Assembly (NCBI GenBank): GCA_037127795.1
Contig: JBAXXQ010000002.1
Span: 11-64,010, forward strand
Length of the DNA stretch: 64,000 nt
From: a bacterium
Lineage (GTDB): Bacteria > Patescibacteriota > Minisyncoccia > Phycocordibacterales > UBA9973
Direction of reading: 5' to 3'
The translations under genes and the position numbers were made by a program. This document shows, one piece after another, positions 14,848-56,616 of this stretch (within the stretch, counting starts at the first letter, position 1; every line of letters begins with the position of its first letter). The notes under the pieces are model-generated. The model searched no databases, had not been told where the DNA came from, and saw nothing but the letters and a program-made list of their open reading frames with translations.

Positions 14848-14853
14848 TTATAT

Positions 14854-38655: not shown

Positions 38656-41600
38656 ATGAGAGCAAATATTTTTAAAAAATTTGCGTCGTTCATTTTGTAC
38701 ATTTTTGTACTCTCTTTTGTCGTACCAAGTACAACTCTCGCTATCACAGGAGCCCCAAGTATTATCAGCTACCAAGGAAGACTTACAGATAGCTCTGGTA
38801 ACTTGCTCGGTGGCGCAGGCACACTCTATGCATTCAAGTTTTCTATCTGGGACAATTCAGTAGTGGGGGCTGGTACCAAGCTTTGGCCTGCAGCAAATCC
38901 TGGCGTAGATTCTGTGCAGGTCACTGATGGGGTGTTCAATGTCCGCATCGGTGATACTGCGAACGGCTACCCAGATACACTCAACTACAATTTCCAAGAT
39001 AATGCCAATGTCTATTTGCAAATAGAAGTTTCTTCTGATGGTACGACATTCGAGACGCTTGGTCCTCGTCAGCAAATCACTTCAGCAGGCTATGCGATAA
39101 ATGCACAGACACTGCAGGGCCTCACCCCTGGTACTGGCGCAAACAATCTTTTGCAATTGGGAAGTAATGGCGAGATCAATCTCTCAGGAAATGGTATTTC
39201 TACACTCGGCAATGTAGGTCTCGGTACTGTATCGAGCGGTGTATGGCATGGCGATCCTATTGCAGACGGCTATTTTGTAAAAACAGGGAACTGGGAAGGA
39301 AATTTTGGTGGGTACGATAGTAGTTACTATCTCAATGCGACTCATTTATCAAACTTCCAAATCCCATTTGATACTGCATTCGCGACAAAGACTACAGATA
39401 GTCTCGCAGAAGGAAGTTTGAATAAATATTTTACCGATACTCGTGCGCGCAATGCTATATCTGTAGCAGGTGCACCGTTGAGCTACGATACTAGTACTGG
39501 AGTAGTATCTATCGCACAAGCAGATAGTACACATGCAGGATTTGTATCAGCGGCAGATTACAACACCTTCAACAACAAACAAGATGTATTGATCTCTGGC
39601 ACTAATATAAAAACAATAAACTCAAATTCTCTCCTCGGTGCGGGAGATATTTCTGTTGCGACATTGCTTGGCTATACACCATACAACACAACAAACCCAA
39701 GTAATTTTATTTCAAATATTGGCGGCCTCGTAACTCCTGGTACCAATGTCTCAATCACCGGGAGTGGTACTGCGATAGATCCGTTTGTTATCACTAGTAC
39801 CAATCCAGGTGGGACAGTGACTTCTTTTGCTTTTACAAACAGTAACGGCTTCACAGGGAGTGTTTCAAATAGTGGGACTACGCCGACACTAACGCTTGCT
39901 TTGCAATATGCAAACAGTACACAAGACGGTCAGCTTTCTGCTACTGATTACAATACCTTTAATAATAAACAAGATACACTCGGCTACACACCATACAATG
40001 CGACCAACCCCGCAGGATATATCTCAAATCTTAACGCACTTACTACAACAAATTTGAATGAAGGAAGTAATTTGTATTTCACCAATGCCCGCGCAATAAG
40101 CGCACTCACCGGGCAAAATATTTCATTATTAAATAATAACGCTGGCTATATCACCGGTGTCTCATGGGGTGGTATTACAGGACTTCTTGCAAATCAAACA
40201 GACCTCCAAAATGCACTCAATGCAAAACAAAATGTCATCACACTCGGCACTACTGCACAATATCTCCGTGGAGACTTGTCTCTTGGGACATTTCCAACTG
40301 CAGTATCGAGTTTTACCAATGATGCAAACTATATCACCACCGCAGGTGCACGAAGTGCTATATCTGTAGCTAGTACACCACTCACATACAATAGTAGTAC
40401 GGGGGTAGTCGGTATCAATCAGGCAAATAGTACAACCGATGGTTTTGTATCAAGTACTGATTGGAATACATTCAATAATAAATTTAGTCTCCCAGCCCTT
40501 ACAAGTGGCTCTGTTGTTTTTGCAAATGGTTCAACACTTGCACAGGATAACAATAACTACTATTGGGACAGCACTAATGCGCGTTTGGCAATTGGTGGCT
40601 CTTCGTCAGGTGCAAGTTATCCAAGTGTTGCAATGACAGGTGCAAGTACTCCGAGTCCTTATGTGGCTAGTGCCTCAACTTTTAATACAGGGTTTGAAGC
40701 CTATAGAGCTTTTGATAATAATAGTGGTACAAACTGGAATAATACTGCAAGTACTGGTTGGCTTGCTATTGACCTAGGTAGTACGACAACAATAAATAAA
40801 TACCAAATTCAAGCATTAAATAGTGCTGGTACTGTTTCTGCGACCCCAAAAACATGGACTCTCGAAGGTTCTACTACAGGTGCATGGGCTGGGGAACAAG
40901 TGATTATTGATACTCAGGCAAGCCAAACAGGTTGGACTGTAAGCGAAATACGAACTTTCACTCTTTCATCAGCACAATCATATAGATACTATCGTATAAA
41001 TATATCTGCAACTAATGGGTACCCTACAATAGGTATAACCTCATTTGTTTTACAAAATACTTCACCTATTCACGTTTCTCCGCTTGCAAAACTCCATATC
41101 ACCGCTGGATCAAATACGGAAAAAGGTCTCATTGTACAAGGTGCTGCAAGTCAAACTGCAAACCTTCAAGAATGGCAGGATAGTGCAGGGGGTATATTGT
41201 CATATATGACCCCCGCGGGAAATATAGGGTTTGGATATGGTAGTCATACTATATCTATAGATGCTCCATCATCAAACAGTAATGGAAGTAATTTGACGAT
41301 TATTGCGGGGGCTACTACTGGGACTGGATACACAGGAGGAAATTTGTACTTACTTCCTGGGGCAACTGCGGGAGGAGGTTCTGCAGGTAGTGTTTGGATT
41401 GGGGGAAACTCTTCAGGTAATTACCAATCATATAGTAATAATATTCAAGGTTTTACAAGAGTTAGGAATGGGGGGCCTAATACAAATAATTTACTTGCTC
41501 TTGCTGGTGGATCCGGTTTGGATAACTGGGTATTCTCATACGATCAAACAAATAAATATGCAATTACGACATATGCGAGTACGTATCAAGCGCAATTTAA

Positions 41601-44600
41601 AACTGCTACAGCGTATACATTTGATAATAATGTAGGTGTTGGTACTATTTCTCCCTCAGCACGATTGCACTCTCTTGCTACTACCGAGCAGCTTCGCCTT
41701 GGATATGACACAGCAAATTACATGTCTACTACTATTGGTAGCACTGGCAATGCAACTCTCGCACTCACTGGCACCGGCACTCCAGCATTTACATTCTCAA
41801 ACCCTATAAATATCTCTGGTGCACTCACTGCGACAAGTATTACAAACTCATCACTCACTCAAGGCTCAGTACTCTTTGCAGGTGTGGGTGGGTTAGAGTC
41901 ACAAGACAATAACAACTACTATTGGGATAGTACCAATGCACGGTTGGCAATTGGAGGGTATTTAGGCGGGACTGTATATCCGACAACTGCAATGACTGCA
42001 AATAATCTACCATCTCCTTATGTAGCAAGTGCCTCATCTGTATCGGGAGGTTACCCAGAATATCAGGCTTTTGATAAAAACGCTTCAACATTTTGGGCAT
42101 CTCTTGTTAATAATCCAACCGGTTGGATTGCGATTGATTTGGGTAGTACTACAACAATAAATAGATATCAGGTACAAGCTACTTCTGGTGGAGGAAATGT
42201 AAACCCTAAAAACTGGACTCTCGAAGGTTCTACAACTGGCGCATGGGCAGGTGAGCAAGTAGTACTTGATACTCAAACAAACCAAACCGGCTTAATGACA
42301 GGGGGTGCGATTCTCACATACACTCTTTCGTCAAATCAATCATACAGATATTACAGATTAAACGTGAGTGCAAACAATGGCGCTACTAACTACCTTGAGG
42401 TTGCTAGTTTCAATGTACAAAATACAAATACAACTCATGTAGCACCACTTGCAAAACTCCATATCACCTCAGGTTCACAGACTGAAAAAGGTTTGATTGT
42501 TCAAGGATACGCAAGTCAAACTGCAAACCTTCAAGAATGGCAGGATAGTACTGGTGCAGTGAAGGCATATATTGATCCGTTCGGTCAGATTACTTCATCA
42601 AGTAATATTTATGCAACAGGTACTGTTACTGGTGGTAATGGAAGAATTATAATGTCTGGTGGTTTAACTAATGGAGCAAACGGTTCTATCTACACACAAT
42701 CAGGACAATCAAGAAGTTTGGAATTGGTAGTCGATCAAACTGCTGGTCGCGGAATGCTTATTCAGACAGGGACAGGGTATGTAGGAGTAGGTACTACATC
42801 TCCTACGTCTATGCTCGATGTAGCAACAAATGCGCTCGGTACAACACAGACAACAACAAGTGGTCTTGCGCTAGAAAACAACACTGCAGGTGCGCTCAAC
42901 GCAATGCAAATATCTCCAGCTGTACGTATGAGCGGGCAGGGATGGTATGTAAACGGAAGTGTATCACAACAAGTTGATGCTCGTATGTATGTGTTGCCAG
43001 TTCAAGGAACATCAGCAAATGCAACAACGTCAATAGTATTTGATGCACAAGATGGAAGTCGTGGAGGATTTAATAAAATTGCTGATTTTTCTAATCAATA
43101 CGGAGGTACCAGTGGAAATTTAAATTTATATGATAGCGGTGTTATTAAGGCTTCTTTGTTTGCTGGAGGTAATGCAAGATTAAATTTAAATGGAGGTATA
43201 GTAACTAGTCGAGGTAGTAATATTATAATGAGTACATCAGTTCTTAACGATCCTAATACTTATAATATGGGGATGGTGACATCTATATCTAACACTCTTC
43301 CACAATTTTCTGCAAACTATAATGCGACAAACTATTTTACAACAACGGTAGGTAGTACAGGCAACGCAACACTCGCACTTACAGGTACTGGTACACCATC
43401 ATTTACATTTTCAAACCCCGTAAATATTTCTGGTGCACTCACTGCGACAAATATTACCAACTCATCCCTCACCCAAGGCTCAGTAATCTTTGCTGGTGCG
43501 GGTGGAGTAGAGAGTCAGGATAACAATAACTACTATTGGGATAGTGTAAACAATCGTCTTTCTATTGGAGGGTATTTAGGTGGGACTGTATATCCAACTT
43601 CTTCAATGACTACAAACAGCTTGCCATCTCCTTATGTGGCTACGTCTAGCGGCTCTCAAATTGGTGGGTATGAATCATTTAGAGCTTTTGATGGAGTCCT
43701 TTCATCTGCGTGGGCTGTTGGGACTACTTCTGGTTGGCTTGCTCTAGATACAGGTAATGCTCTTGGGACAACAATAAATAAATATCAAGTACAAGCATCA
43801 AATCCGATGGGCATAGGTATTGGTTCTATGCCAAAAAACTGGACTATTGAAGGTTCTACAACTGGTGCATGGGCTGGTGAGCAAGTAACCATTGATACAC
43901 AAACAAATCAAACTGCTTGGTCTTTAGGAGAAATTAGAACATATCCCCTTTCAACACCTCAAACATATAGATATTATCGTATAAACATTAGTGCAAACAA
44001 TGGTAGTAGTTCATATACTGGTATTGGTGCATTTAATCTTCAGAATACTGCAACAACACACGTAGCACCTCTTGCAAAACTTCATATCACTTCAGGTTCA
44101 CAGACAGAAAAAGGATTGATCGTACAAGGATATAATTCTCAAACTGCAAACCTCCAGGAGTGGCAGGATAGTAGTGGAAGTATAAAAGCATATGTTGATA
44201 GTGGTGGTACTTTTAATACCGGTGCTACTATTGTTGCGACAGGTTCTATTACTGGGGGAAATGGAAGAGTTGGTATAGGTGCGGGTCTTACAAGTAGTAC
44301 GAACGGCGCGATATATTCTACTTCTGGAAAAAGTTTGGAATTGGTTACAGATTCAACAGCTGGTCGTGGAATGCTTATTCAAACAGGAACAGGTAATGTC
44401 GGTATTGGCACAACATCACCTTCAGCAAAAACACACATTCTCGGTACTACTGAACAACTCCGCCTCGGATACGATGCTTCAAACTACATGTCTACTACTA
44501 TTGGTAGCACTGGCAATGCAACTCTCGCACTCACTGGCACCGGCACTCCAGCATTTACATTCTCAAACCCTATAAATATCTCTGGTGCACTCACTGCGAC

Positions 44601-47600
44601 AAGTATTACAAACTCATCACTCACTCAAGGCTCAGTACTCTTTGCAGGTGTGGGTGGGTTAGAGTCACAAGACAATAACAACTACTATTGGGATAGTTCA
44701 ACACAACGTCTTGCAATTGGAGGTTCTTCATCGGGGTCAAGTTATCCAAGCGTTGTTATGACCGGGAATAGTAGTCCGTCTCCGTATGTAGCTAGTGCAT
44801 CAGGTACTAATTATGGTGCACCGTGGAACGCTTTTGATAATAATTCTTCAACAACATGGAAATCTAATGTACTTGGATCAGGTTGGCTTGCTATTGATTT
44901 AGGAAGTGTTACAACTATAAATAAATATCAAATTCAGGTAGATCCTGTCTACACTAGTAATCAACCAAAAACATGGACTCTCGAAGGTTCTACTACGGGT
45001 GCATGGGGAGGTGAGCAAGTAACTCTCGACACACAGGCGAGTCAAACAGGGTGGGCTGTGGGTGAAATACGTACATTTACTCTTTCGTCATCTCAATCAT
45101 ATAGATATTTTAGAATAAATGTCACAGCAGTTTCTGGTGTTGATAATGTGGTTATTGCTTCATTTGTTTTACAAAATACTTCTCCGACCCACGTTTCTCC
45201 TCTTGCAAAACTCCATATCACTGCTGGATCAAATATTGAAAAAGGTCTCATCGTACAGGGTGTAGCAAGTCAAACCGCAAACCTCCAAGAGTGGCAAAGT
45301 AGTACCGGAAGTATTTTGTCTACTATAAATAGCAGTGGATATTTGGGTATTGGAACAAGTACTCCTCGATATCAAATTGAATTAAATAGCGGAACTGCTA
45401 ATTCAAGTCTTGTATTGTCGGATTCCGCAGCTTCGTCTACAAGTCGTGGACTTTCTTGGACACGATCAAGTGATGGAACAGTATTTCAATATATTTCTGC
45501 AACAACTGATAGTGGAAATATGCTTTTAGCAGCATATCACAATGTATTGTTTGTCTCAGGATCTGGTAGTGGTGTTGGTATGGGACTTCCGACAACAAAC
45601 AATTTCCTTTCAGGTAAATTGCATATTCGTGGAGAAAGCTCTGATACATCTTCAAACACTTATACAGGTACCAATGCATTGTATGTAGAAAACTCGCTTG
45701 CGCAACAGCTCTTCTCTGTGGCAAACACAGGAAGCGTCGGTATTGGTACAAACACTCCTACATCATTACTCCAAGTAACTCAACGTACAACAGGTGCGGG
45801 TACTGTTACCAACACTGCGGGCGGTACAACTGTTACTGGTACTGGTACACAATTTACAAACACCTTTAAAGTCGGAGACACAATCACTATCGGTGGGCAG
45901 ACTGTTGCTATTTCTGCTATTGCATCAGATACAGGTATGACAACAGCTGCGATCACAAATGCAAATACCAATGCGGCATATACACTCGTCGGTGGAAATA
46001 GATTTGCGGTGAGTGGTAATGGAAATACTATCGTTGGTCCTGCAACATATAGTCCGTCTAATGCACAATTCTTTGTTTCAAACTCAACATATAATAATGG
46101 ATCAGGGGTTATTATTGATACGAGTGGGACATACCCAAATGCAAGTACAAACCCTCTTATTGGATTTGTGGGTGCTGGATTAACACTACCTTCATCGTGG
46201 ATTCAGGCTGTATTGCCGTATGGTGCAATGCAGATGAGAGCGTATAGTGACTTGCAAATTACAACTACAAATGCAACAGGGGGAGGTTTGAGTGTCAACA
46301 GTGGGGCTACATTTAGTGCTTCGTTGGGTAGAATAAATGCAGCGGGTACGCGTACCTCAGTTTCTGGGCAAGCATCTAGTTTCTATAGTAATGTTGCACT
46401 TACCGCAGCAGCAACAAATGATATTTTGGCAAGTTATTATATAAATGATACTTATGTTCCTGGTGCATTTACTGGTGTTACTCAATACGGTATTTATCAA
46501 AACAATACTGCGCAAAACTATTTCCAAGGGAATGTGGGAGTAGGTACTGCGACACCTTCTGCAAAACTACATTCTCTTTCTACTGGTGAACAGCTTCGTC
46601 TTGGATATGACGCGTCAAACTATACCGCATTTACAACATCTTCAACTGGAAACTTAACTATTAATCCAAGTGGTGCTGCGGTCCAAATTGCTGGTAATTC
46701 TGCCCTTATTATAAATCCTGGAAATGGAACACTGGGTGTCGGTGTAAGTGCTCCAACAGCAAAAGTTGATATTGCAGATATTGCACTTGCCGGTAGTGGA
46801 TCACTTGCTGGATCGGTGTTAAATATCGCACAAACTTGGAATACGTCAGGTTCACCTACTGCTATAAAATTGGCGGTTACAAATACTGCAAGTAACGCTA
46901 CCTCAAGTTATCTCCTTGATTTGCAGGCAAACAATAGCGGAGGAGGAATGTATTCTAAGTTTAGTGTGAGATATGATGGGTATGTCGTTGCGGGTTCTTC
47001 AATATCAGCAGGTGGTGCTTTTGTAGGGTTAACAAACGGACAAGATAATCAGCCTATTATTAAAAATAATAATACAGCGTTTGGTTTATGGACAACAAAT
47101 TCACTATCATCAAGTTATGTAGGCTATGGTACTAATATCACACTAGGTATGAATATGAATAGTACTGGAAACTTTGGATTCAGTACTACGGCAACAGCAA
47201 CAGAGAAAGTGACAATTGCAGATACAACTCTTGCTGGTAGTGGGTCACTTACTGGCTCAGTACTTAATCTTACACAAACATGGAATACAACAGGAGCACC
47301 AACTGCTATTAAATTGAATGTGACAAACACTGCAAGTACAGGGACGCCAAAACTTCTTGATTTGCAAGTGGGAGGAGTGTCGAAGTTCTATGTGCCAGCG
47401 AGTGGTAGTGTTCAGGCACCAAACGGCATTGTTGCAAGTAGTGGATTCACTATGAATGGTGGCTTAGGAATTGGTTCTGCATTTGCTGGTAATGGATCAT
47501 GGGGTAATTCTTCTGGCTCAAATGTGATTAATGGTGTTGCAATTTATCCTACAATAAACCTTACTGGTACATATTCAGGAAGTGCATTTGGATTTTCTTT

Positions 47601-48783
47601 TACGCCTACTATTACATCATCAACAGGAAGCTTGTATGCGTTTTATTCTTCAAATGGTATGAACTCGTTTACCGATACTATTTCTGCTAGTTCAGGTTCT
47701 CGTGCTGGTTCACTCCTTTCTCTTAATCAAAAATGGAATACAACAGGAAGTCCGACAGCTATACTCCTTAATGTGACAAATGGGTCTGGTGGTGCTGGAG
47801 TAGCTGGAACTAATGCTAATTTAATGGATTTGCAAATGGGAGGAACGAGCATGTTTGCTGTAGGGGCAAATGGAAATGTGGGTATCAATGGTATTCCGAC
47901 AAATCGTCTCTCTGTTATGGGTGCAAGTGGTGATACTACTGTAGTTAATATCGGTACGACCAGTGGAAACAACTGTAGCTTCTCGACAACGACTGGCTCA
48001 TGGAGTTGTGCGTCTGATATTCGTTTGAAGCATGATATCTCAGATATTTCTGCAGCAGATGCGCTTGCAAAGCTTGGTATGCTCAATCCAGTATTCTTCC
48101 GATATAATTGGCAAGCAGATAGTGAGTCTGCTATTGCTGGATTCATCGCGCAAGATTTTGAAAAAGTATTTCCAGAGCTCGTAAATACAGATCCAAATAC
48201 AGGATACAAGTCGCTCTCATATGCACCACTTATGCCGTACGTAGTAAAAGGACTCAATGATCAAGAAAAGAAAATTTCTGATATGGATATTCGTGTTTCA
48301 AAATTGGAAACAATACTCGCACTCGCAACACCTAGTACAAATTCTTTTGATGGAGTACTTGCAAGTATGAATGCAAATGTGATCGACGGGGTGGCGCATT
48401 TCAAGAGTTTGTTTGTCGATACTATACATGTAGACAAGGGTATCGAAATGAAAGATCAAACAACTGGCGCATTGTACTGTGTAGTAATCAATAATGGTGA
48501 TTGGGTAAAAAATCCTGGTCCTTGTGATACACCAGTAGTGGTGCCGCTTGCGCCAACACCTGCAGTATCTGTACCGACTACTACGACAACCCCAAATACA
48601 ATTCCGGATACACCCGTAGTAAGTCCTACTCCAAGCACAACAGATACTAGTACTCCATCAGTAACAACTACAGTTACGCCAGATCCAGCACCTAGTTCTG
48701 CTCCAGTAGTAGCCCCAACCAATACAACTGATTCTGCTCCAGCACCTACAGTAGCAGCACCTGTAACAACAACCACCCCATAA
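38656..48783 (+). CDS. Giant secreted surface and tail-fibre-like protein (3375 aa) with a signal peptide and LGYTPYN(T/A)TNP modules. It has four ~130-aa discoidin (F5/8 type C)-like modules, each followed by a conserved PLAKLHITSGS.TEKGLIVQG.ASQTANLQEWQDS block, and (V/I)G(V/I)GT.(S/T)P. fibre repeats. The C-terminus carries a peptidase S74 intramolecular chaperone domain and a Thr/Pro-rich tail.
   Basis: Signal MRANIFKKFASFILYIFVLSFVVPSTTLA. Discoidin-like blocks lie near 40680-41070, 42040-42430, 43660-44060 and 44810-45190 (AFD.N.ST.W...GWLAIDLGS.TTINKYQIQ...PK.WTLEGSTTGAWAGEQV). The chaperone domain sits at about 48000-48330 (SDIRLKHDISDI...NPVFFRYNW...GFIAQDFEKVFPELV). The PT-rich tail is at 48520-48780. 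Confidence 0.85.
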   Translation: MRANIFKKFASFILYIFVLSFVVPSTTLAITGAPSIISYQGRLTDSSGNLLGGAGTLYAFKFSIWDNSVVGAGTKLWPAANPGVDSVQVTDGVFNVRIGDTANGYPDTLNYNFQDNANVYLQIEVSSDGTTFETLGPRQQITSAGYAINAQTLQGLTPGTGANNLLQLGSNGEINLSGNGISTLGNVGLGTVSSGVWHGDPIADGYFVKTGNWEGNFGGYDSSYYLNATHLSNFQIPFDTAFATKTTDSLAEGSLNKYFTDTRARNAISVAGAPLSYDTSTGVVSIAQADSTHAGFVSAADYNTFNNKQDVLISGTNIKTINSNSLLGAGDISVATLLGYTPYNTTNPSNFISNIGGLVTPGTNVSITGSGTAIDPFVITSTNPGGTVTSFAFTNSNGFTGSVSNSGTTPTLTLALQYANSTQDGQLSATDYNTFNNKQDTLGYTPYNATNPAGYISNLNALTTTNLNEGSNLYFTNARAISALTGQNISLLNNNAGYITGVSWGGITGLLANQTDLQNALNAKQNVITLGTTAQYLRGDLSLGTFPTAVSSFTNDANYITTAGARSAISVASTPLTYNSSTGVVGINQANSTTDGFVSSTDWNTFNNKFSLPALTSGSVVFANGSTLAQDNNNYYWDSTNARLAIGGSSSGASYPSVAMTGASTPSPYVASASTFNTGFEAYRAFDNNSGTNWNNTASTGWLAIDLGSTTTINKYQIQALNSAGTVSATPKTWTLEGSTTGAWAGEQVIIDTQASQTGWTVSEIRTFTLSSAQSYRYYRINISATNGYPTIGITSFVLQNTSPIHVSPLAKLHITAGSNTEKGLIVQGAASQTANLQEWQDSAGGILSYMTPAGNIGFGYGSHTISIDAPSSNSNGSNLTIIAGATTGTGYTGGNLYLLPGATAGGGSAGSVWIGGNSSGNYQSYSNNIQGFTRVRNGGPNTNNLLALAGGSGLDNWVFSYDQTNKYAITTYASTYQAQFKTATAYTFDNNVGVGTISPSARLHSLATTEQLRLGYDTANYMSTTIGSTGNATLALTGTGTPAFTFSNPINISGALTATSITNSSLTQGSVLFAGVGGLESQDNNNYYWDSTNARLAIGGYLGGTVYPTTAMTANNLPSPYVASASSVSGGYPEYQAFDKNASTFWASLVNNPTGWIAIDLGSTTTINRYQVQATSGGGNVNPKNWTLEGSTTGAWAGEQVVLDTQTNQTGLMTGGAILTYTLSSNQSYRYYRLNVSANNGATNYLEVASFNVQNTNTTHVAPLAKLHITSGSQTEKGLIVQGYASQTANLQEWQDSTGAVKAYIDPFGQITSSSNIYATGTVTGGNGRIIMSGGLTNGANGSIYTQSGQSRSLELVVDQTAGRGMLIQTGTGYVGVGTTSPTSMLDVATNALGTTQTTTSGLALENNTAGALNAMQISPAVRMSGQGWYVNGSVSQQVDARMYVLPVQGTSANATTSIVFDAQDGSRGGFNKIADFSNQYGGTSGNLNLYDSGVIKASLFAGGNARLNLNGGIVTSRGSNIIMSTSVLNDPNTYNMGMVTSISNTLPQFSANYNATNYFTTTVGSTGNATLALTGTGTPSFTFSNPVNISGALTATNITNSSLTQGSVIFAGAGGVESQDNNNYYWDSVNNRLSIGGYLGGTVYPTSSMTTNSLPSPYVATSSGSQIGGYESFRAFDGVLSSAWAVGTTSGWLALDTGNALGTTINKYQVQASNPMGIGIGSMPKNWTIEGSTTGAWAGEQVTIDTQTNQTAWSLGEIRTYPLSTPQTYRYYRINISANNGSSSYTGIGAFNLQNTATTHVAPLAKLHITSGSQTEKGLIVQGYNSQTANLQEWQDSSGSIKAYVDSGGTFNTGATIVATGSITGGNGRVGIGAGLTSSTNGAIYSTSGKSLELVTDSTAGRGMLIQTGTGNVGIGTTSPSAKTHILGTTEQLRLGYDASNYMSTTIGSTGNATLALTGTGTPAFTFSNPINISGALTATSITNSSLTQGSVLFAGVGGLESQDNNNYYWDSSTQRLAIGGSSSGSSYPSVVMTGNSSPSPYVASASGTNYGAPWNAFDNNSSTTWKSNVLGSGWLAIDLGSVTTINKYQIQVDPVYTSNQPKTWTLEGSTTGAWGGEQVTLDTQASQTGWAVGEIRTFTLSSSQSYRYFRINVTAVSGVDNVVIASFVLQNTSPTHVSPLAKLHITAGSNIEKGLIVQGVASQTANLQEWQSSTGSILSTINSSGYLGIGTSTPRYQIELNSGTANSSLVLSDSAASSTSRGLSWTRSSDGTVFQYISATTDSGNMLLAAYHNVLFVSGSGSGVGMGLPTTNNFLSGKLHIRGESSDTSSNTYTGTNALYVENSLAQQLFSVANTGSVGIGTNTPTSLLQVTQRTTGAGTVTNTAGGTTVTGTGTQFTNTFKVGDTITIGGQTVAISAIASDTGMTTAAITNANTNAAYTLVGGNRFAVSGNGNTIVGPATYSPSNAQFFVSNSTYNNGSGVIIDTSGTYPNASTNPLIGFVGAGLTLPSSWIQAVLPYGAMQMRAYSDLQITTTNATGGGLSVNSGATFSASLGRINAAGTRTSVSGQASSFYSNVALTAAATNDILASYYINDTYVPGAFTGVTQYGIYQNNTAQNYFQGNVGVGTATPSAKLHSLSTGEQLRLGYDASNYTAFTTSSTGNLTINPSGAAVQIAGNSALIINPGNGTLGVGVSAPTAKVDIADIALAGSGSLAGSVLNIAQTWNTSGSPTAIKLAVTNTASNATSSYLLDLQANNSGGGMYSKFSVRYDGYVVAGSSISAGGAFVGLTNGQDNQPIIKNNNTAFGLWTTNSLSSSYVGYGTNITLGMNMNSTGNFGFSTTATATEKVTIADTTLAGSGSLTGSVLNLTQTWNTTGAPTAIKLNVTNTASTGTPKLLDLQVGGVSKFYVPASGSVQAPNGIVASSGFTMNGGLGIGSAFAGNGSWGNSSGSNVINGVAIYPTINLTGTYSGSAFGFSFTPTITSSTGSLYAFYSSNGMNSFTDTISASSGSRAGSLLSLNQKWNTTGSPTAILLNVTNGSGGAGVAGTNANLMDLQMGGTSMFAVGANGNVGINGIPTNRLSVMGASGDTTVVNIGTTSGNNCSFSTTTGSWSCASDIRLKHDISDISAADALAKLGMLNPVFFRYNWQADSESAIAGFIAQDFEKVFPELVNTDPNTGYKSLSYAPLMPYVVKGLNDQEKKISDMDIRVSKLETILALATPSTNSFDGVLASMNANVIDGVAHFKSLFVDTIHVDKGIEMKDQTTGALYCVVINNGDWVKNPGPCDTPVVVPLAPTPAVSVPTTTTTPNTIPDTPVVSPTPSTTDTSTPSVTTTVTPDPAPSSAPVVAPTNTTDSAPAPTVAAPVTTTTP
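41720..41931 (+). repeat. Copy 1 of a perfect 212-bp intragenic direct repeat (identical to 44486-44697)
   Basis: acatgtctactactattggtagcactggc...caataacaactactattgggatagt is identical at both positions by direct reading. A diverged third copy lies at about 43330-43545. Confidence 0.85.
44486..44697 (+). repeat. Copy 2 of the perfect 212-bp intragenic direct repeat
   Basis: See copy 1. The two copies are 2766 bp apart within the same ORF and in the same frame. Confidence 0.85.
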
Positions 48784-48784: not shown

Positions 48785-50104
48785 ATGAAAAACGTATATA
48801 AAAAAATTCTATATATAGTAGTCTTGGGAATAGGAATTTTTTCTTATTCGCAAGTGTCTGCAACAAGTATCGTGGGATTAGATTTTTCTATTGTGAATCC
48901 GATTCTTTCTAGTGGTTTTGCGCAAATAAAATCTACCAATTTTGGGCTTGGGCAATCGTTTGGGCAAAGTGTAATAGGGAAGTCTATCTCTGCTCGATTC
49001 CAGGTGTGGAGTGGGTTCCAATACTATGCGACAGCAAAATCGTTTGTTGCGACAGCACAACCAGGAGATAGTAAAATAACGTATTCATGGACTGCGCCGC
49101 AGACATATCTGGGTGCGACTGTTGGTTCATATGAACTCGGTATAGGTACTACGCCAGGGACATATGTATTTCAAAATGTAGAAAGTGTTACTACGTTTGT
49201 AAAACCAGGACTTACCAATGGTGTGCAGTATTATGCAATCATAAAAGCAGTTTCTCCTGGTGGGGCTGTACTTTCTTTTTCTAATGTACTAATTACAAAA
49301 CCAGTAGCGGCTACTATAAATCCTGGTACTGGCGGCGGCGGTGGAGGCGGTGGAGGAGGTGGTCCTTCGAATACTGGCTCTGTTGGTAATGCAGCTATTA
49401 TTATAAAAGGTATTGCATACCCTGGTGCGCAAGTGACTATTCTCAAAGATGGTGCAGTACAAGCGGTGACTACTGCAGATATGGGGGCTTTGTTTTCTAT
49501 TACTATAAATAATCTCGTCGCAGCGCAGTATACATTTGGCGTATATGCGACAGATTCAAATGGAAAAAAATCTAGTGCGTATAGCTTCCCGATGACACTT
49601 ACTGACTCAGTGACTGCCGAGATCGACAATGTATTCCTCGCGCCAACTATTGGGGTAGATAGTAGTACGGTGAAAAAGGGTGATCCGATTGGGATTTTTG
49701 GTACTGCTGCGCCGAATGCACAGGTCAATATTTATGTGCACTCGGCGCAGCAATTCACTGAGCAGGTGAGTGCGTCAAAAGTCGGTGCATGGTTCAAGCA
49801 ATTTGATACATCATTCCTCGAGCTTGGAGATCACGTGACATTTTCTCGACAAATAAAAGGCACGCAAGTGACTGATGTCAGTCAGAGTGTCGGCTTCACG
49901 GTGGGTGATAAAACTATAAAAGAAAATACTACGTGTGGGCGCAGTGATATGAACTGCGACAAGAAGGTGAATATTACAGACTTGAGTATGCTCTTGTATT
50001 ACTGGCACAAAACACCTCCTGCAAATTCAAAAGCAGATATAAATAAAGATAAGATTGTTGACTCAAAAGATTTTTCAATATTACTATATGACTGGACAGG
50101 ATAA
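48785..50104 (+). CDS. Secreted protein with FN3/Ig-like beta domains, a poly-Gly linker and a C-terminal dockerin-like domain
   Basis: Signal anchor MKNVYKKILYIVVLGIGIFSYSQVSA. The linker is GTGGGGGGGGGGGPS. The C-terminus carries two Ca-loop/helix repeats, DMNCDKKVNITDLSMLLYYW and DINKDKIVDSKDFSILLYDW. Confidence 0.6.
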   Translation: MKNVYKKILYIVVLGIGIFSYSQVSATSIVGLDFSIVNPILSSGFAQIKSTNFGLGQSFGQSVIGKSISARFQVWSGFQYYATAKSFVATAQPGDSKITYSWTAPQTYLGATVGSYELGIGTTPGTYVFQNVESVTTFVKPGLTNGVQYYAIIKAVSPGGAVLSFSNVLITKPVAATINPGTGGGGGGGGGGGPSNTGSVGNAAIIIKGIAYPGAQVTILKDGAVQAVTTADMGALFSITINNLVAAQYTFGVYATDSNGKKSSAYSFPMTLTDSVTAEIDNVFLAPTIGVDSSTVKKGDPIGIFGTAAPNAQVNIYVHSAQQFTEQVSASKVGAWFKQFDTSFLELGDHVTFSRQIKGTQVTDVSQSVGFTVGDKTIKENTTCGRSDMNCDKKVNITDLSMLLYYWHKTPPANSKADINKDKIVDSKDFSILLYDWTG

Positions 50105-51227
50105 AAAACAAAAATTATATACCATATTTTTTTATACACTTATAGTATTTTTGTGTAGTGTATTTCGTGTACATGCTGCTGTGCTTTCTGTCGGATCAGC
50201 GCAGCAAAATATATATGTTGGCGATAGTGTCTCTATTGATTACTATATAGATACCCAAGACGCGCCAATAAATGTCGTCGATGCGACATTGCACTATGAT
50301 GCAAAAACATTACGCGTAGACAATATCTCTACTGGAAATTCTGCGGCAAGTATCTGGGCAGAAAGTCCTAGTGTGGTACGTGATGGCTTTATACATTTTG
50401 TTGCAGGGTTCCCTGATGGTATAACAGGCAACCATATATCACTCCTTCGTGTTACCTATGTAGCGCAAAGTGCTGGAAGTTCATTTCTTTCAAATACTAT
50501 ACAAAATTCGCACGTATATATAAATAATGGCGCAGGGACAGAGCAAGAGCTCTCTATGCAGCCTGTGAGTTTTATGATTCTCCCAGAAGGCGGCAAGGTC
50601 GCCACTATATCTTCTAATACAAATCCTATGCAGACTAATTGGTACAAAGATCACGATGTCAAAATTCATTTCACTATGCAAAAAGATAGTGTGTATAGTT
50701 ATAGTTTCAGTACCAATCAAGAGCTTATCCCAAGCGATACCCCAATGCAGACAAATGGTGATGTACTGTATGAGCATATTCCTGATGGAGTGTACTATTT
50801 CAAGCTTGCTATGAAGAGTGGCTCAGGATGGAGCGAAGCGGGGGTATATAGAGTACAAATAGATAGTACTAGTCCCACTATTTTGTCTGCATATATAAGT
50901 AGTGACATGTCTATATATAGTGGTAATGCATTCGTATCTTTTTCTGGGGTAGATAAAACAAGTGGTATCGCGCAATATGCAGTACGCAGTGGGTACTTTG
51001 GGTTCTATCATACAGCGACAAGTCCATACAAAATAAATCGTCCATTGTTTGGTAATTTTATTACTGTGCGTGCGCGTGATGTTGCAGGTAATACTAGTAC
51101 AGAGACAGTGTACTATCCTGCATACATTCCAAATTGGCTTGCAATAATACTGTTGTGTATACTTGTGTGTGGTTTGTTGTTGCGATACACCACACTCCGT
51201 CGTATACTTACTAAGATACAAAAATAA
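50088..51227 (+). CDS. Membrane-anchored surface protein with an N-terminal cohesin-like beta-sandwich domain and a C-terminal TM anchor
   Basis: Signal ...FLCSVFRVHA. The domain begins AVLSVGSAQQNIYVGDSVSIDYYIDTQ..INVVDATLHYDAKTLRV..ISTG, matching the cohesin start pattern. The C-terminal TM is NWLAIILLCILVCGLLL followed by RR. The start was chosen at the ATG at 50088. Confidence 0.45.
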   Translation: MTGQDKKQKLYTIFFYTLIVFLCSVFRVHAAVLSVGSAQQNIYVGDSVSIDYYIDTQDAPINVVDATLHYDAKTLRVDNISTGNSAASIWAESPSVVRDGFIHFVAGFPDGITGNHISLLRVTYVAQSAGSSFLSNTIQNSHVYINNGAGTEQELSMQPVSFMILPEGGKVATISSNTNPMQTNWYKDHDVKIHFTMQKDSVYSYSFSTNQELIPSDTPMQTNGDVLYEHIPDGVYYFKLAMKSGSGWSEAGVYRVQIDSTSPTILSAYISSDMSIYSGNAFVSFSGVDKTSGIAQYAVRSGYFGFYHTATSPYKINRPLFGNFITVRARDVAGNTSTETVYYPAYIPNWLAIILLCILVCGLLLRYTTLRRILTKIQK

Positions 51228-51230
51228 TTT

Positions 51231-51953
51231 ATGAAAAAATTTTTTACACTCATATCAATTTTCTTTTTTACTTCAGTACTTGTAGTACATGCTGCTGTTA
51301 TATCTATCGCGCCAAGTAGTAAGTCTGTTGTTGAGGGAACAACCTTTAGTGTATCTGTAGAAGTAAATACAAAAGGCCAAGCGGTAAATGCTGCAGAGAC
51401 CACGGTAAGCTTCCCATCTGATTTACTCGAAGTAGTATCTGTTGCTGGTGCAAAAACTTTTTCATTACAAACACCAGGGTCTCCTTCTCGTACAGAAAAC
51501 TCAGTTTCATTTTCTGCAGGGATACCATCTCCAGGATACAATGGTCCTCGTGGTGGAGTAGGGCGTATTACCTTTAAAGCAAAAACACCAGGTAGTGCTC
51601 GTATAACAGTTACTTCTGGAAAAGTATTGCTCAACGACGGCAATGCGACAGATGTATTTGATGGTACAACAAATGCACTTATTACTATCACTGCTGCACC
51701 AAAGAAAGAAGTACCTGTTGAGGTAGTACCAGCTCCAGAGACTCCAGCTACAGTAACACCAACAGAAACACTTCCTCCAATCACTCCAACTGTTGCGCCT
51801 GTAGTACAGACTGCACCAACTCAGACCATATCGATCAAAGTATCTGATCTCTTCACCCTTATATACGTACTTATCGGAATAATCGTTCTTCTTGCAATAT
51901 CAGTACTTATTCTTGTACTCTTGTTACTCAAAAAGAATAAGAAGATTAAATAA
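51231..51953 (+). CDS. Membrane-anchored cohesin-like domain protein with a Pro/Thr linker and a C-terminal TM anchor
   Basis: Signal ...FTSVLVVHA. The domain begins AVISIAPSSKSVVEGTTFSVSVEVNTKGQAVNAAETTVSFPSDLLEVVSVAG, paralogous to the N-domain of the preceding gene. A PT-rich linker is followed by the TM LIGIIVLLAISVLILVLLLL and KKNKK. Confidence 0.45.
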   Translation: MKKFFTLISIFFFTSVLVVHAAVISIAPSSKSVVEGTTFSVSVEVNTKGQAVNAAETTVSFPSDLLEVVSVAGAKTFSLQTPGSPSRTENSVSFSAGIPSPGYNGPRGGVGRITFKAKTPGSARITVTSGKVLLNDGNATDVFDGTTNALITITAAPKKEVPVEVVPAPETPATVTPTETLPPITPTVAPVVQTAPTQTISIKVSDLFTLIYVLIGIIVLLAISVLILVLLLLKKNKKIK

Positions 51954-51959
51954 TTAAAA

Positions 51960-51998
51960 ACCGCCCCCGTCAGCTGACGGGGGCGGTTTTTTTATAAG
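51960..51998. terminator. Bidirectional Rho-independent terminator
   Basis: Reads aaaaccgcccccgtcagctgacgggggcggttttttt. Confidence 0.65.
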
Positions 51999-52001: not shown

Positions 52002-52361
52002 TTATTTTTTAATTGCATTTAGTGCGCCGATTTTTCCAAGATCCACTTTTCCAATTTGCTCTTCATCGATATTAAATATTGAAACACCAAAATATACTAC
52101 AAATGCGATAACAATAAAATCGATACCATTGTTTATAAAAGTACCGTAATGTATTGCAGCGTGTCCTACATGAAATACTTCTGTATCGAGATCGTTCACT
52201 CCACCGAGCAATCCATGCAATATCGGATTGATGATATCTACTACGAGGGAAGTGACGAATTTTGATATAGCACCACCAAGAATAAAACCGACAGCAAGGC
52301 CGACAATCCCTTGGTTTTTTATGAAATTTTTGAATCCTTTAAATTTTTTGATACCAGGCAT
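52002..52361 (-). CDS. mscL: Large-conductance mechanosensitive channel MscL
   Basis: Reads FKNFIKNQGIVGLAVGFILGGAISKFVTSLVVDIINPIL, the MscL TM1 consensus. 119 aa. Confidence 0.85.
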   Translation of the reverse strand: MPGIKKFKGFKNFIKNQGIVGLAVGFILGGAISKFVTSLVVDIINPILHGLLGGVNDLDTEVFHVGHAAIHYGTFINNGIDFIVIAFVVYFGVSIFNIDEEQIGKVDLGKIGALNAIKK

Positions 52362-52422
52362 AATTTTTATACTAGCATAGTTTTATTATATGTCTATATA
52401 TAGCCTGGTATATACTATATAT

Positions 52423-54651
52423 ATGAGCATTACAAAAACATACAAAATAAAAGGTATGCATTGTGCAAGTTGTGCAGCTATTATTACCAATAAAGTTTCA
52501 AAAATTCCTGGTGTAGAAAATATTGTTGTACAAATTGGTACAGAAAAAGCACAGCTTTCTTTTGCTGAAGATATTGTTTCATTAACCGATATAAATAATA
52601 CTATTGGAGTATTGGGGTACAGTTTTGAATCTACAGAATCCATACATGGAGAAAAAGAAAAACACTTGCACGATATGAAAATAAAAGCTGTATATAGTAC
52701 TCCTATTGCAGTATTCGTATTTTTACTTATGCTTTGGGATATTGTATCAAAAAGTTTTTCTTTTGTGCCAGCATTACCACTATCAATGATGCTTTTTAAT
52801 AGTGTCCTTTTTGTACTATCTAGTGTCACACTGTTCTGGATTGGTAGACCGTTTTTGCAAGGAGTAATAAATTTTATAAAACATAAGGTTGCAAATATGG
52901 ATACACTTATCGGTATAGGGACGAGTGTTGCGTACCTGTATAGTGTGTTGATTATGATGTTCCCGTATATGCGCACAGTGTTACACCTTCTGGAGACTAC
53001 ATATTTTGATGTAGTAATAGTAGTTATTGGTTTTGTACATTTGGGAAAATATCTAGAAGCACGATCAAAGCTTCGTACTGGAGAAGCAATAGAAAAACTT
53101 ATTGGACTTCAGGCGAAAACAGCAATAGTAATACGAAATGGTGTTGAACAAGAAATATCAGTAGAGCATGTTGTTGTAGGAGATATTTTTATTGTAAAAC
53201 CTGGAGTAAAAATTCCTGTTGATGGATTGGTTATTTCTGGAAGCTCTTCTGTAGATGAATCTATGATTACCGGAGAATCTATCCCTGTCGATAAAGGTAT
53301 CGGCAGTAGTGTTGTCGGTGCGACTATTAATAAACAAGGGAATATGCAATGTAGAGCAACAAAAGTTGGGTCTGATACAGTGCTCGCTCAAATCATAAAA
53401 ATGGTTGAAGATGCGCAAGGGTCACGTGCCCCAATACAAAAACTCGCGGATAAAATTTCTAGCGTATTTGTTCCTGTAGTACTTTTGATCGCTATTGCTA
53501 CATTACTAGTGTGGCTTGGTGTAGGAAGTTTTTTTATTGGATTTTCTAGTGCGCTTTCGTATGGGATACTTTCTTTTGTCGGAGTGCTTGTTATAGCGTG
53601 TCCGTGTGTTCTTGGTCTTGCAACACCGACTGCGATTATTGTAGGTGTCGGTAATGGTGCAGAGCATGGTATATTGATTCGCAATGCTGAAGCTTTAGAA
53701 AAATTGAGTAAAGTTACTACAGTAGTCCTAGATAAGACAGGCACTCTTACAAAAGGAAAACCTGAAGTAACAGATATTATCTCTCTTGATAGCGCGTGGA
53801 CAGAAACAGAGATTCTTCGTATAAGTGTAAGTATAGAAAAACTTTCTGAACACCCACTTGCTGATGCTATTGTTGTGAAAGCGGGAGAGCAGCATATAAA
53901 ACTCGGTAGCGTTACAAATTTTGAAGCACTTGAAGGTGTGGGAGTACAAGGTGTAATTGATGGAAAACATATTGTGATTCATAGGCCATCAAAAATTGAC
54001 GCGCAAGAAACAAAAATCAAAGAATTACAAGAACAAGGAAAAACAGTCGTTATTGTTGAGGTTGATAAAAAACAAGTTGGTCTTATCGCACTTTCTGATA
54101 CTCTCAAAGAAGAATCAAAAGAAGTAGTAAAAAAACTTCATGCAAGAAATATCAAAGTAGTAATGCTTACTGGAGACAACTATGTAGCTGCACAGTATAT
54201 TGCAAAACTCGCAGGTATCGATGAGGTGATTGCAGAAGTATTACCCGGAGAAAAAGCAGGTAAGATAAAAGAATTGCAAAAGGATGGCGCTTTTGTTGCG
54301 ATGGTGGGGGATGGTATCAACGATGCGCCGGCGCTTGTACAAGCAGATGTTGGTATTGCTATGGGTACAGGGATAGACGTTGCTATAGAGTCTTCTGGTA
54401 TCACGCTTCTTGGTGGTGATATTACAAAGGTTGTGCAGGCAATACAGCTTTCAAAAATAACCATGGCTGGTATACGACAAAATCTTTTTTGGGCTTTTAT
54501 TTTCAATATACTAGGAGTTCCTATTGCTGCTGGGGTATTATATCCAATATGGGGTATAACATTAAATCCGGTATTTGCAGGTCTTGCTATGGCGTTCTCA
54601 AGTGTTTGTGTAGTATCAAACTCATTACGAATTAAAACTAAAAAAATATAA
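52423..54651 (+). CDS. copA: Copper-translocating P1B-type ATPase (CopA-like) with an N-terminal HMA domain
   Basis: HMA motif [10 protein letters not shown], the CPC motif in a TM segment, the phosphorylation motif DKTGTLT and the [10 protein letters not shown] motif. Confidence 0.85.
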
Positions 54652-54653
54652 TT

Positions 54654-56540: not shown

Positions 56541-56616
56541 GAATAATATAGTGTGAGATTTCGTCACCCAGTAGGCGATTCTGCTGAATCGCGAATTACT
56601 AAGTTTTTTAGTATTG

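Follow-up and report, generated by a model that had tools for sequence, protein, structure and literature searches.

A conserved dockerin gene followed by membrane-anchored cohesin genes: a candidate surface-attachment module of Patescibacteria

The closest structural relatives of the cohesin described here are modules of Clostridium perfringens glycoside hydrolases, namely the cohesin and FN3 domains of GH84C (2w1n), the cohesin of GH33 (2vo8) and 2jh2. These modules use the cohesin beyond cellulose degradation, adjoin FN3/Ig-type domains, and serve on secreted enzymes to assemble enzyme complexes. In the cellulosome type I pairs of C. cellulolyticum (2vn5/2vn6), C. acetobutylicum (6kgc-6kgf) and C. 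thermocellum (4fl4), the dockerin is composed of two 22-residue repeats, each a Ca loop followed by a helix, with an 8-residue linker. The repeats are near-symmetric, a property that underlies dual-binding modes. Cellulosomes also contain multi-cohesin scaffoldins, CBMs and dockerin-bearing enzymes, and are anchored by SLH domains or sortase. Cohesin and dockerin sequences reportedly occur in Archaeoglobus fulgidus, a non-cellulolytic organism from a different domain of life, where their biological role is said to be unknown; the architectures differ from those presented below, and we know of no report from Archaeoglobus of a conserved operon of a dockerin gene followed by TM-anchored cohesin genes. 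The Ruminococcus bromii amylosome, an enzyme complex of GH13 amylases, reuses cohesin-dockerin pairing in another extracellular assembly (PMC4611034). In the candidate phyla radiation (CPR, Patescibacteria), SEML1_0315 of the Saccharibacterium Southlakia epibionticum was described as a surface protein with a dockerin domain, essential by Tn-seq, and its structure-based annotation lists Ig/FN3-type domains. This 927-residue protein is encoded monocistronically; its gene lies between those of a tRNA and a hydrolase, and no cohesin gene adjoins it (PMC10633639).

Here we describe a cassette of three genes, encoding the proteins P1, P2 and P3, in a 64-kb stretch of DNA from an uncultured, ultra-small CPR bacterium (hereafter, the window). 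The cassette probably represents a minimal, non-enzymatic surface-attachment module of the CPR, in which the dockerin of P1 would dock to the cohesin of P2 and/or P3. The sequence identity of the C. perfringens modules to P2 is only 16–20%; the cassette is enzyme-free, and each of its cohesins resides on its own TM-anchored protein. Unlike the amylosome, it contains only fn3/Ig domains. Like P1, SEML1_0315 is described as a CPR envelope protein with a dockerin. The cohesin and dockerin modules themselves are already known and named in NCBI.

The cassette forms the distal part of a co-directional four-gene unit on the forward strand, composed of a giant fibre gene (38656..48783), P1 (48785..50104), P2 (50088..51227) and P3 (51231..51953). 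The reading frames of P1, P2 and P3 were all found in the window at the positions assigned to them in advance. The junctions are tight: the ATG of P1 lies 1 nt past the stop codon of the giant gene, P1 and P2 overlap by 17 nt, and P2 and P3 are 3 nt apart. Sec-type signal peptides are present on all four proteins. Directly 3' of P3, a strong, G+C-rich palindromic hairpin (51956..51991, assigned to neither strand), with a 16-bp stem and A and T runs on either side, is the one predicted terminator, likely bidirectional, and would end the unit before the convergent mscL gene (52002–52361, reverse strand). The genes flanking the unit, for malic enzyme, MscL and a P-type ATPase, are chromosomal.

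P1 is a secreted fn3/Ig/Ig/dockerin protein of 439 residues without a membrane anchor. The signal peptide (aa 1–26, 48785..48862, forward strand, as are all of the following features) is apparent from the sequence and from a helix at residues 2–20 in the AF2 model, and it is likely cleaved after the predicted site ...VSA. The subsequent family-specific segment (aa 24–86, 48854..49042; S.NF.L.QS.GQ..IGKS.S..FQVWSGFQYY) has nearly invariant alignment columns, a very low model confidence (pLDDT 36–42), and is seen only in P1-like proteins; it is presumed to be the distal tip. A fibronectin type III domain follows (aa 89–171, 49049..49297), modelled as a β-sandwich with pLDDT above 90. Its Pfam score of 22.4 bits is under the cut-off of 25, PF00041 is found on most family members, and Foldseek retrieves tandem FN3 arrays. 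A Gly-rich hinge with an 11-Gly run (aa 182–197, 49328..49375; pLDDT below 50), in which G190 and G191 are nearly invariant across the family, leads to two Ig-like Big_6 domains (aa 203–284 and 293–374, 49391..49906), supported by Pfam (29.5 bits against a cut-off of 27.6) and by the AF2 model.

An earlier note, made from the sequence alone, had read the end of this protein as two dockerin repeats and proposed a search with PF00404; both repeats were recovered, and the profile matches residues 387–433 at 30.2 bits, above the gathering cut-off of 22.9. The dockerin (aa 387–439, 49943..50101) consists of repeat 1, DMNCDKKVNITDLSMLLYYWHK (aa 388–409, nt 49946–50011), and repeat 2, DINKDKIVDSKDFSILLYDWTG (aa 418–439, nt 50036–50101), which are 8 residues apart, the second forming the C-terminus of the protein. 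In both repeats of about 22 residues, a 12-residue EF-hand-like loop with the pattern D-x-N-x-D-x3-[ND]-x2-D precedes a helix (DMNCDKKVNITD and LSMLLYYWHK in repeat 1, DINKDKIVDSKD and FSILLYDWTG in repeat 2). The Ca-loop residues are all present, with Asp/Asn at positions 1, 3, 5 and 9 and Asp at 12, and the model places helices at residues 397–405 and 427–438. The best PDB sequence matches are dockerins (2y3n_B and 4fl4_A), and PF00404 is found on most of the 120 P1 relatives listed. Among 150 P1-family members, ligand positions 1, 3, 5 and 12 are kept in all sequences with a recognisable repeat 1, those of repeat 2 are 73–99% conserved, and the two repeats average 52% identity to each other. 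P1 shares with cellulosome type I dockerins the two 22-residue repeats, the 8-residue linker and the near symmetry. As compared to these dockerins, the helix motif, D-F-S-I-L/M-L-Y-x-W, is distinctive, the protein terminates in W-T-G, and the host belongs to the CPR.

P2 is a type I membrane protein of 379 residues. Its most likely start is the ATG at 50088, in agreement with public gene calls, rather than the TTG at 50055. The signal peptide (aa 1–30) is followed by the cohesin (aa 31–165, nt 50178–50582), two more β-sandwich domains (aa 172–258 and 264–342), and a TM helix with a basic tail (aa 349–379, nt 51132–51224), modelled as a helix at 349–378; the residues after the TM helix are RYTTLRRILTKIQK. 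In the AF2 model (pLDDT 87.6), the N-terminal domain is a genuine cohesin fold, and not a generic Ig fold: Foldseek superposes residues 31–165 on 2vo8 with a TM score of 0.81 and an rmsd of 2.4 Å, and matches the model to 2w1n with an E-value of 2.5e-10. The TM scores are 0.67–0.75 with 6kgc, 2jh2, 2vn5, 1g1k and 4ums and about 0.7 with 6kgd. The same fold is shared with cellulosome type I cohesins, and the matches near 0.7 include the CaCohA2, C. cellulolyticum and C. thermocellum cohesins solved in complexes with dockerins.

P3, a type I membrane protein of 240 residues, has a signal peptide (aa 1–21), a cohesin (aa 22–157, nt 51294–51701) and, as read from the sequence, a Pro/Thr/Val-rich linker (about aa 158–206), a TM segment (about aa 207–233, nt 51849–51929) and the basic tail KKNKKIK. 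P3 itself has no Pfam match; an identical protein in NCBI bears the name 'cohesin domain-containing protein'. The first ~140 residues of P2 and P3 are paralogous (BLASTP, 28% identity, E 2e-14), and their family profiles align over 159 columns (HHalign, 99.9%, E 2e-35). The cohesin identity of P3 is predicted from its homology to P2 and from the PF00963 matches of its relatives. In profile searches of PDB sequences, the P2 family matched cohesins weakly (E 0.011–0.22), and the P3 family profile matched none. The earlier note had recognized the paralogous cohesin-like starts and the linker and TM termini, all of which are borne out here, as is the cohesin fold of P2 over the unrelated Ig-like fold that it had named as the refuting outcome. 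Its suggested PF00963 search succeeded in part: 10 of 25 P2-family members (best 4.7e-9) and 17 of 24 P3-family members (best 1.8e-11) match at E < 0.01, while P2 itself scores 23.1–23.2 bits (E 8e-5), about 1 bit below the cut-off of 24.1, and P3 gives no match.

Beyond the module identities, topology and operon structure, the analysis shows that the dockerin-then-cohesins order is strictly conserved across the CPR. Of 87 related loci, 86 have a single dockerin gene with one to four cohesin genes directly behind it on the same strand, and P1 relatives are encoded in at least 503 stretches of GTDB species genomes, with record titles mostly of CPR lineages. The anchored cohesins and the anchorless dockerin are a family-wide topology: a TM segment follows the cohesin in 164 of 173 complete proteins, a TM segment beyond the signal peptide occurs in only 1 of 85 dockerin proteins, and 76 of these 85 end exactly at the W-T-G/A of the dockerin. 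Each cohesin protein has a single cohesin domain, both in the window and in every related locus. The plug-and-socket model offers no explanation for one dockerin alongside two to four separately anchored cohesins. HMM searches of the whole window detected exactly one dockerin and two cohesins; this count covers the 64 kb, and further dockerin proteins may exist elsewhere in the genome, possibly as the true partners of one cohesin. With this count, and with the same order of genes seen again in 86 of 87 loci, their co-occurrence is far beyond chance. In the literature searched, we found no paper describing such a conserved cassette, nor one behind the earlier statement that CPR pairs are thought to build surface scaffolds.

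In the arrangement that we propose, P2 and P3 would stay in the cytoplasmic membrane through their C-terminal helices, with the basic tails in the cytoplasm. The cohesin of P2 would be held off the membrane by the two rigid β-sandwich domains, and that of P3 by the flexible linker, some 50 residues long and rich in Pro and Thr. The anchorless P1, whose C-terminal dockerin has both Ca2+ loops intact and a pair of near-symmetric helices, would most likely plug Ca2+-dependently into the cohesin of P2 and/or P3. On the cell, P1 would form a rod (Ig, Ig, Gly hinge, fn3), with its N-terminal ~60-residue segment facing outward as the working tip. The strong conservation of this tip suggests a conserved partner, which may be an envelope component or a co-encoded large fibre or lectin protein. 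We infer the physical contact, the partner cohesin, the Ca2+ dependence and the ligand of the tip; the docking is a predicted pairing, supported indirectly by the synteny in 86 of 87 loci and the complementary topology. The cassette probably serves to pin a surface protein to the cell and has no part in cellulose digestion.

The giant protein of 3375 residues, directly downstream of which the cassette had been placed by the earlier note, is composed of a signal peptide, a conserved N-terminal region of ~290 residues, four F5/8-type-C (discoidin) repeats (Pfam, 117 bits in 4 stretches), a Peptidase_S74 domain (aa 3120–3176, 48013..48183; PF13884, 49 bits against a gathering cut-off of 22), which is an intramolecular chaperone of the endosialidase/tail-fibre type, and a Pro/Thr-rich tail. 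The dockerin and cohesin HMMs did not match it, and the evidence for a surface structure shared with it is the gene arrangement (operon linkage). Extending our explanation rather than strictly opposing it, the cohesin-dockerin module could be the membrane socket for this fibre: the P1 tip would grip the fibre, for example at its N-terminal ~290 residues, and the S74-processed trimer would be held on the cell via the P1 dockerin and the P2/P3 cohesins. This is possible, though doubtful. It agrees with the 1-nt junction inside one terminator-bounded unit, and with the S74-type fibres that precede the cassette in 10 non-redundant related loci; in L001, L002 and L008, the closest relatives, and in the distantly related L085, the fibre gene borders immediately on the dockerin gene. 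The N-terminal ~290 residues are conserved (54–67% identity to the fibres of L001, L002 and L008), while total fibre length varies from 996 to 3383 residues, and a conserved tip that is unmodelled as a monomer is expected of a segment folding on a partner. An upstream same-strand ORF of at least 600 residues occurs in 41 of the 54 loci with enough upstream sequence, but the other 13 lack a large upstream ORF. Moreover, the large upstream proteins are of unrelated types (S74 fibres, fn3 arrays, Laminin_G_3 lectins and a separate C-terminal-domain family), whereas the P1 tip is conserved across all, and none of them bears a dockerin. The giant protein also matches PHROG tail and tail-fibre families (including tail-fibre PHROGs 1980 and 33119), which, with its Peptidase_S74 domain, could point to a prophage or phage-derived tail-fibre module in the chromosome. 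We consider this origin highly improbable, given that P1, P2 and P3 have no PHROG matches, a tblastn search of 50,697 phage records gave no match to P1, and the cassette, flanked here by chromosomal genes, is vertically conserved beside housekeeping genes across CPR lineages.

Alternatively, the two modules may not pair at all, the cohesin-like domains being generic structural or glycan-binding surface β-sandwiches and the dockerin a Ca2+-binding stabiliser or the binder of another ligand, so that the neighbourhood would reflect a shared envelope function only. To our knowledge, no partner has been demonstrated for many of the cohesin and dockerin modules outside cellulosomes. The cohesins of the window score under the Pfam cut-off, in a mirror-tree test dockerin and cohesin covaried weakly once shared phylogeny was accounted for (partial r 0.10 and 0.29), and the essential Southlakia protein stands without an adjoining cohesin. 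However, the nearly invariant gene order in many CPR lineages, the strictly complementary topology and the dockerin-binding cohesins that are the closest structural neighbours of P2 make this unlikely. A cellulosome- or amylosome-like complex degrading polysaccharide would be suggested by the modules themselves, which define such complexes, and host glycans have been proposed, speculatively, as the target of dockerin proteins in the CPR (PMC10633639). Nevertheless, no catalytic or CBM domain was detected above threshold in P1, P2 or P3, one cohesin per protein leaves no multi-cohesin scaffoldin, and the single dockerin in 64 kb is not on an enzyme. The anchor is a C-terminal TM helix, with neither an SLH domain nor a sortase (LPXTG) signal, and we regard such a complex as very unlikely.

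Docking of P1 to the membrane-anchored cohesins remains our preferred reading. In a wider and rather doubtful form of it, the cassette would be a 'plug and socket' that is lineage-wide in Patescibacteria and apparently present once per locus, a conserved membrane anchor for a surface apparatus, with the P1 tip holding either the lineage-variable fibre or lectin proteins encoded next to it or a coat resembling an S-layer.

Little is known of how CPR bacteria build their surface or attach to their hosts, and for most of their envelope proteins no role has been assigned. The cassette, usually encoded beside large proteins of fibre or lectin type, offers a protein-protein link that is conserved, simple and testable, between one dockerin and two to four cohesins in the membrane. 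Should the docking not be real, these would be ordinary annotated domain proteins. If it is, the cassette would provide a mechanism of non-covalent surface display in the CPR, a route of which we found no description in the literature searched, and would extend cohesin-dockerin biology to a non-enzymatic, membrane-anchored form. Its small recombinant domains could then serve in pull-downs, in labelling uncultured cells and in finding the ligand of the P1 tip. If the lineage-wide plug and socket were true, the module would be needed for the episymbiotic attachment of these wall-poor, host-dependent cells, and would give a universal handle to study or block CPR-host contact.

P1, a secreted protein that ends in a dockerin, is encoded on the plus strand at 48785–50104 (439 aa), directly behind the gene of a giant fibre protein (38656–48783, plus strand, 3375 aa). 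It is followed on the same strand by two genes for membrane-anchored cohesin proteins: P2, which starts at ATG 50088 (379 aa, as in public gene calls; the longest ORF runs from TTG 50055), and P3 (51231–51953, 240 aa). The giant and P1 genes lie 1 nt apart, P1 and P2 overlap by 17 nt, and 3 nt separate P2 from P3. Directly after P3, a palindromic, G+C-rich hairpin with a 16-bp stem and A and T runs on either side (51956–51991) stands between P3 and the convergent mscL gene. Given the tight junctions and this hairpin, taken as a terminator, the four genes look like one transcription unit. Minus-strand ORFs inside 48785–51953 (e.g. 49231–49728 and 51113–51784) were not counted as genes, since they overlap the conserved plus-strand genes. 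Beyond mscL, the translations of 52390–55670 (plus strand) read as two metal-related genes, a P-type ATPase with CxxC, CPC and DKTGT motifs and a membrane protein with a CxxC heavy-metal-associated N-terminus. The window also carries a tmRNA gene (25445–25840, minus strand; tag peptide ANSSGSVKSPFANAFGFAPAFA) and two tRNA genes called by ARAGORN, both of which pass Rfam tRNA: tRNA-Ile with anticodon UAU (28844–28918, plus strand) and tRNA-Ser with anticodon ACU (56616–56703, minus strand). The latter anticodon would be unusual for bacterial tRNA-Ser, and its position may be mis-assigned.

The dockerin of P1 scores 30.2 bits against Pfam Dockerin_1 (PF00404; match over aa 387–433), above the curated cut-off of 22.9, and is composed of two 22-residue repeats spaced by 8 residues. 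Repeat 1 is DMNCDKKVNITD-LSMLLYYWHK (aa 388–409) and repeat 2 is DINKDKIVDSKD-FSILLYDWTG (aa 418–439), which forms the end of the protein. The profile search thus confirms the two C-terminal dockerin repeats that an earlier note had read in this protein. The best sequence matches of P1 in the PDB are cellulosomal dockerins (2y3n_B and 4fl4_A), at a weak E of 0.02. A set of 150 non-identical family members whose first repeat could be recognised was compared: in repeat 1, Ca-ligand positions 1, 3, 5 and 12 are invariant, partly by construction because this pattern was used to locate the repeat, and those of repeat 2 are 73–99% conserved. In the same set, positions 8, 10 and 12–18 are similar between both repeats, with a mean repeat–repeat identity of 52%. 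The two repeats are in this way nearly two-fold symmetric, the property by which cellulosomal dockerins can bind in two modes (see the titles of PDB 2vn5 and PMC5429695).

The AF2 model of P1 (80-row alignment, mean pLDDT 83) comprises a signal helix (aa 2–20), a low-confidence segment (aa 22–79, pLDDT ~40), an fn3 domain (aa 89–171), a Gly hinge (aa 182–197), two Ig-like domains (aa 203–284 and 293–374) and a two-helix dockerin; signal-peptide cleavage sites are putative throughout. Foldseek with this model returned tandem FN3 arrays and nothing else, and P1 contains neither an enzyme domain nor a CBM.

The N-terminal domains of P2 and P3 are paralogous (BLASTP 28% identity, E 2e-14), as had been proposed from their cohesin-like starts, and the two family profiles align over 159 columns (HHalign 99.9%, E 2e-35). 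Pfam Cohesin (PF00963) matches 10 of 25 P2-family members (best E 4.7e-9) and 17 of 24 P3-family members (best E 1.8e-11); of the window's own proteins, P2 reaches 23.1 bits (E 9e-5) against a cut-off of 24.1, and P3 has no match of its own in Pfam. A copy of P3 in NCBI bears the name 'cohesin domain-containing protein'. Sequence matches to the PDB were weak for P2 alone and for its profile (7urp_A, E 0.009–0.011; scaffoldin cohesins 5aoz and 5m2o, E 0.15–0.22) and consisted of TM-helix noise for the P3 profile, so that a fold search was required. The AF2 model of P2 (pLDDT 87.6) resembles solved cohesins, including 2w1n, the cohesin and FN3 pair of C. perfringens GH84C (E 2.5e-10), 2vo8 (TM 0.81, rmsd 2.4 Å) and cohesins crystallised with dockerins (6kgc-f, 2vn5/6, 4fl4 and 5lxv; TM about 0.6–0.75). 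Given the paralogy, the PF00963 matches of the relatives and the fold of the P2 model, the N-terminal domain of P2 and P3 is a cohesin and not a mere Ig-like sandwich, which disposes of the unrelated Ig fold that the earlier note had named among the outcomes that would overturn its reading.

Behind the cohesin, P2 continues with two extra β-sandwich domains (aa 172–258 and 264–342) and a TM helix (aa 349–378) with a basic end. In P3, the cohesin is followed by ~50 linker residues rich in Pro, Thr and Val, then by a TM segment and the tail KKNKKIK. Both are in agreement with the anchors and basic residues already noticed at these C-termini. Both proteins start with a signal peptide and carry positive charges behind the TM helix, so that the positive-inside rule predicts type I membrane proteins whose cohesin lies on the outer side.

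Homologue searches showed that the three families co-occur on the same contigs, and the P1–P2–P3 cassette was confirmed on contigs of MAGs labelled Paceibacterota, Parcubacteria Gr01-1014_31, Yanofskybacteria and Doudnabacteria, and of other bacterial MAGs. When GTDB species genomes were scanned with the P1 alignment, at least 503 stretches were found to encode relatives; the best 80 of these carry titles such as Paceibacteria, Doudna-, Taylor-, Kaiser-, Giovannoni-, Yanofsky-, Nealson-, Vogel-, Buchanan- and Veblenbacteria, and Ca. Microsyncoccus archaeolyticus PMX.50 (L082), obtained from an enrichment, is among them. Lineage names are those of the record titles, and the automatic titles 'Saccharibacteria', 'Gammaproteobacteria' and 'Planctomycetia' were treated as unreliable.

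All 87 related loci were searched with HMMs derived from the P1, P2 and P3 families of the window. Exactly one dockerin gene is present at every locus (87/87), and in 86 it is immediately followed on the same strand by one to four cohesin genes, usually two or three; at the exception, L033, the contig stops 55 bases past the dockerin gene. A TM-like segment follows the cohesin in 164 of 173 complete cohesin proteins and lies beyond the signal peptide in just 1 of 85 dockerin proteins, as called by a hydropathy threshold at which a few borderline cases (1.6–1.73) scored negative. The exact C-terminal end is W-T-G or W-T-A in 76 of the 85 dockerin proteins. The 64-kb window itself holds one dockerin and two cohesins, and none further. 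Mirror-tree comparison of the dockerin with the first and second cohesins, controlled for the P1 Ig domains, gave partial r of 0.10 and 0.29, respectively, with the orthology of the cohesins across loci uncertain. Other lineages encode a second cohesin protein of ~570–750 aa (e.g. L015 8430–10499, L011 8418–10541 and L082 7562–9277), and Pfam scans of such examples gave no informative match; across the set, cohesin proteins extend up to 489 aa beyond the TM segment. At L006 (Doudnabacteria), a 115-aa 23S_rRNA_IVP/bAvd-like four-helix-bundle gene (9367–9714) lies between the dockerin and cohesin genes, and a P2-like protein, P0047, has the same Pfam domains.

The data show the identities of the modules, the topology and the genetic linkage of P1–P3. 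We propose that P1, secreted and without an anchor of its own, would attach to the cell when its dockerin plugs, in a Ca2+-dependent manner, into the membrane-anchored cohesin of P2, of P3 or of both, and that docked P1 would project a rod of Ig, Ig, hinge and fn3 with its conserved N-terminal segment at the end. We regard this docking contact as probable. The opposite view, that no dockerin–cohesin pairing takes place at all, is hard to reconcile with the near-invariant order of a dockerin gene followed by cohesin genes and with the complementary topology of their products. An enzyme complex resembling a cellulosome or amylosome would call for features that our searches did not find in the 64-kb window: a multi-cohesin scaffoldin, dockerin-bearing enzymes or a CBM, and anchoring by SLH domains or sortase.

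Besides its signal peptide, the secreted giant fibre carries four discoidin-type repeats, a Peptidase_S74 chaperone domain (aa 3120–3176) and a tail rich in Pro and Thr. A phage origin of the cassette fits these domains only; P1–P3 have no PHROG or phage matches, their neighbours are chromosomal genes, and we reject such an origin for them. The cohesin–dockerin module might serve as the membrane socket on which the giant fibre is mounted. In L001, L002 and L008, the closest relatives, S74 fibres do adjoin the dockerin gene, and they lie upstream of the cassette in 10 non-redundant loci. Of the 54 loci with 4.5 kb or more in front of the cassette, 41 have an ORF of 600 aa or longer there on the same strand. 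The N-terminal ~290 aa of the giant protein (window 38656–39530) are 54–67% identical to the fibres of those three relatives, with total lengths of 996–3383 aa, and this sequence comparison points to a conserved base and a variable shaft. However, the large upstream proteins are of several kinds, among them S74 fibres, fn3 arrays, Laminin_G_3 lectins and proteins of unknown type, and neither a dockerin nor a cohesin was found in the giant protein. At 24 loci, they carry a conserved ~170-aa C-terminal domain (F.GRPYF..DTAGFA...GFTI.LNK...F.WIALAVK) followed by a Pro/Thr/Glu-rich tail (e.g. L046 ORF 1–5454, aa 1528–1817; L062 ORF 1–2892, aa 672–960; L004 ORF 2–4861, aa 1315–1584), but it was discarded as their common handle because the window's giant protein lacks it. 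We consider the socket role unlikely. The frequent presence of a large surface protein near the cassette supports a common surface function; mounting of the fibre on the cohesin–dockerin module would go beyond it. For the surface structure shared with the giant protein, as suggested by the earlier note, the gene arrangement speaks in favour, and the mixed protein types and the giant protein's lack of either module speak against.

Just upstream of the dockerin gene, many CPR loci encode small proteins (~130–190 aa) with an N-terminal TM segment, in two families of 35 and 10 members (e.g. L004 4891–5370, L005 3885–4274, L007 7091–7486 and L006 6984–7927), which have no Pfam match and no homologue in the window. 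At L001 (Paceibacterota), four N_methyl (type IV pilin-like) genes flank the cassette (5712–7010 and 13209–14928). A pilus link was not retained as a general feature, as none of 225 ORFs upstream of dockerin genes contains a GFTLIE-type prepilin motif.

The N-terminal segment of P1 (aa 22–79, window 48848–49021) ranks among the best-conserved stretches of the family (G77 is invariant, and ~12 positions are conserved at 90% or more) and is modelled as a monomer at a pLDDT of only ~40 despite the 80-row alignment. It is found essentially in the P1 family alone: exhaustive phmmer gave 18 matches, all at the N-terminus of P1-like proteins. A portable N-terminal module was ruled out, as HMM and exhaustive phmmer searches found only P1-like proteins and four neighbouring ORFs. 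Given its conservation, its failure to model as a monomer and its near-exclusive occurrence in this family, the data suggest that the segment acquires its fold by binding a conserved partner and is not a rapidly evolving adhesin specific to one host. Folding probably requires a partner or assembly into an oligomer.

Cohesin and dockerin modules also occur outside cellulosomes in the R. bromii amylosome (PMC4611034), in Archaeoglobus, according to references within that paper, and likewise in C. perfringens enzymes, as PDB titles indicate. In Southlakia epibionticum, the surface protein SEML1_0315 is an essential, monocistronic dockerin-domain protein of 927 aa with no cohesins adjacent (PMC10633639); going by this description, its architecture and neighbourhood differ from those of P1, and we do not treat the two as orthologues. 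The individual cassette proteins already have domain-level names in NCBI. Full-text literature searches for either module in CPR, Patescibacteria or Parcubacteria yielded only CAZyme surveys and the remark on SEML1_0315, with no description of a conserved CPR cohesin–dockerin cassette, and neither module comes up in a 2026 review of the phylum. Since the modules are known elsewhere and the conserved cassette was not found described, we class it as a variant: a non-enzymatic cohesin–dockerin system in which single cohesins are each borne on their own TM-anchored protein, across many CPR lineages. The cassette would overturn nothing, yet three small recombinant domains make CPR surface assembly directly testable.
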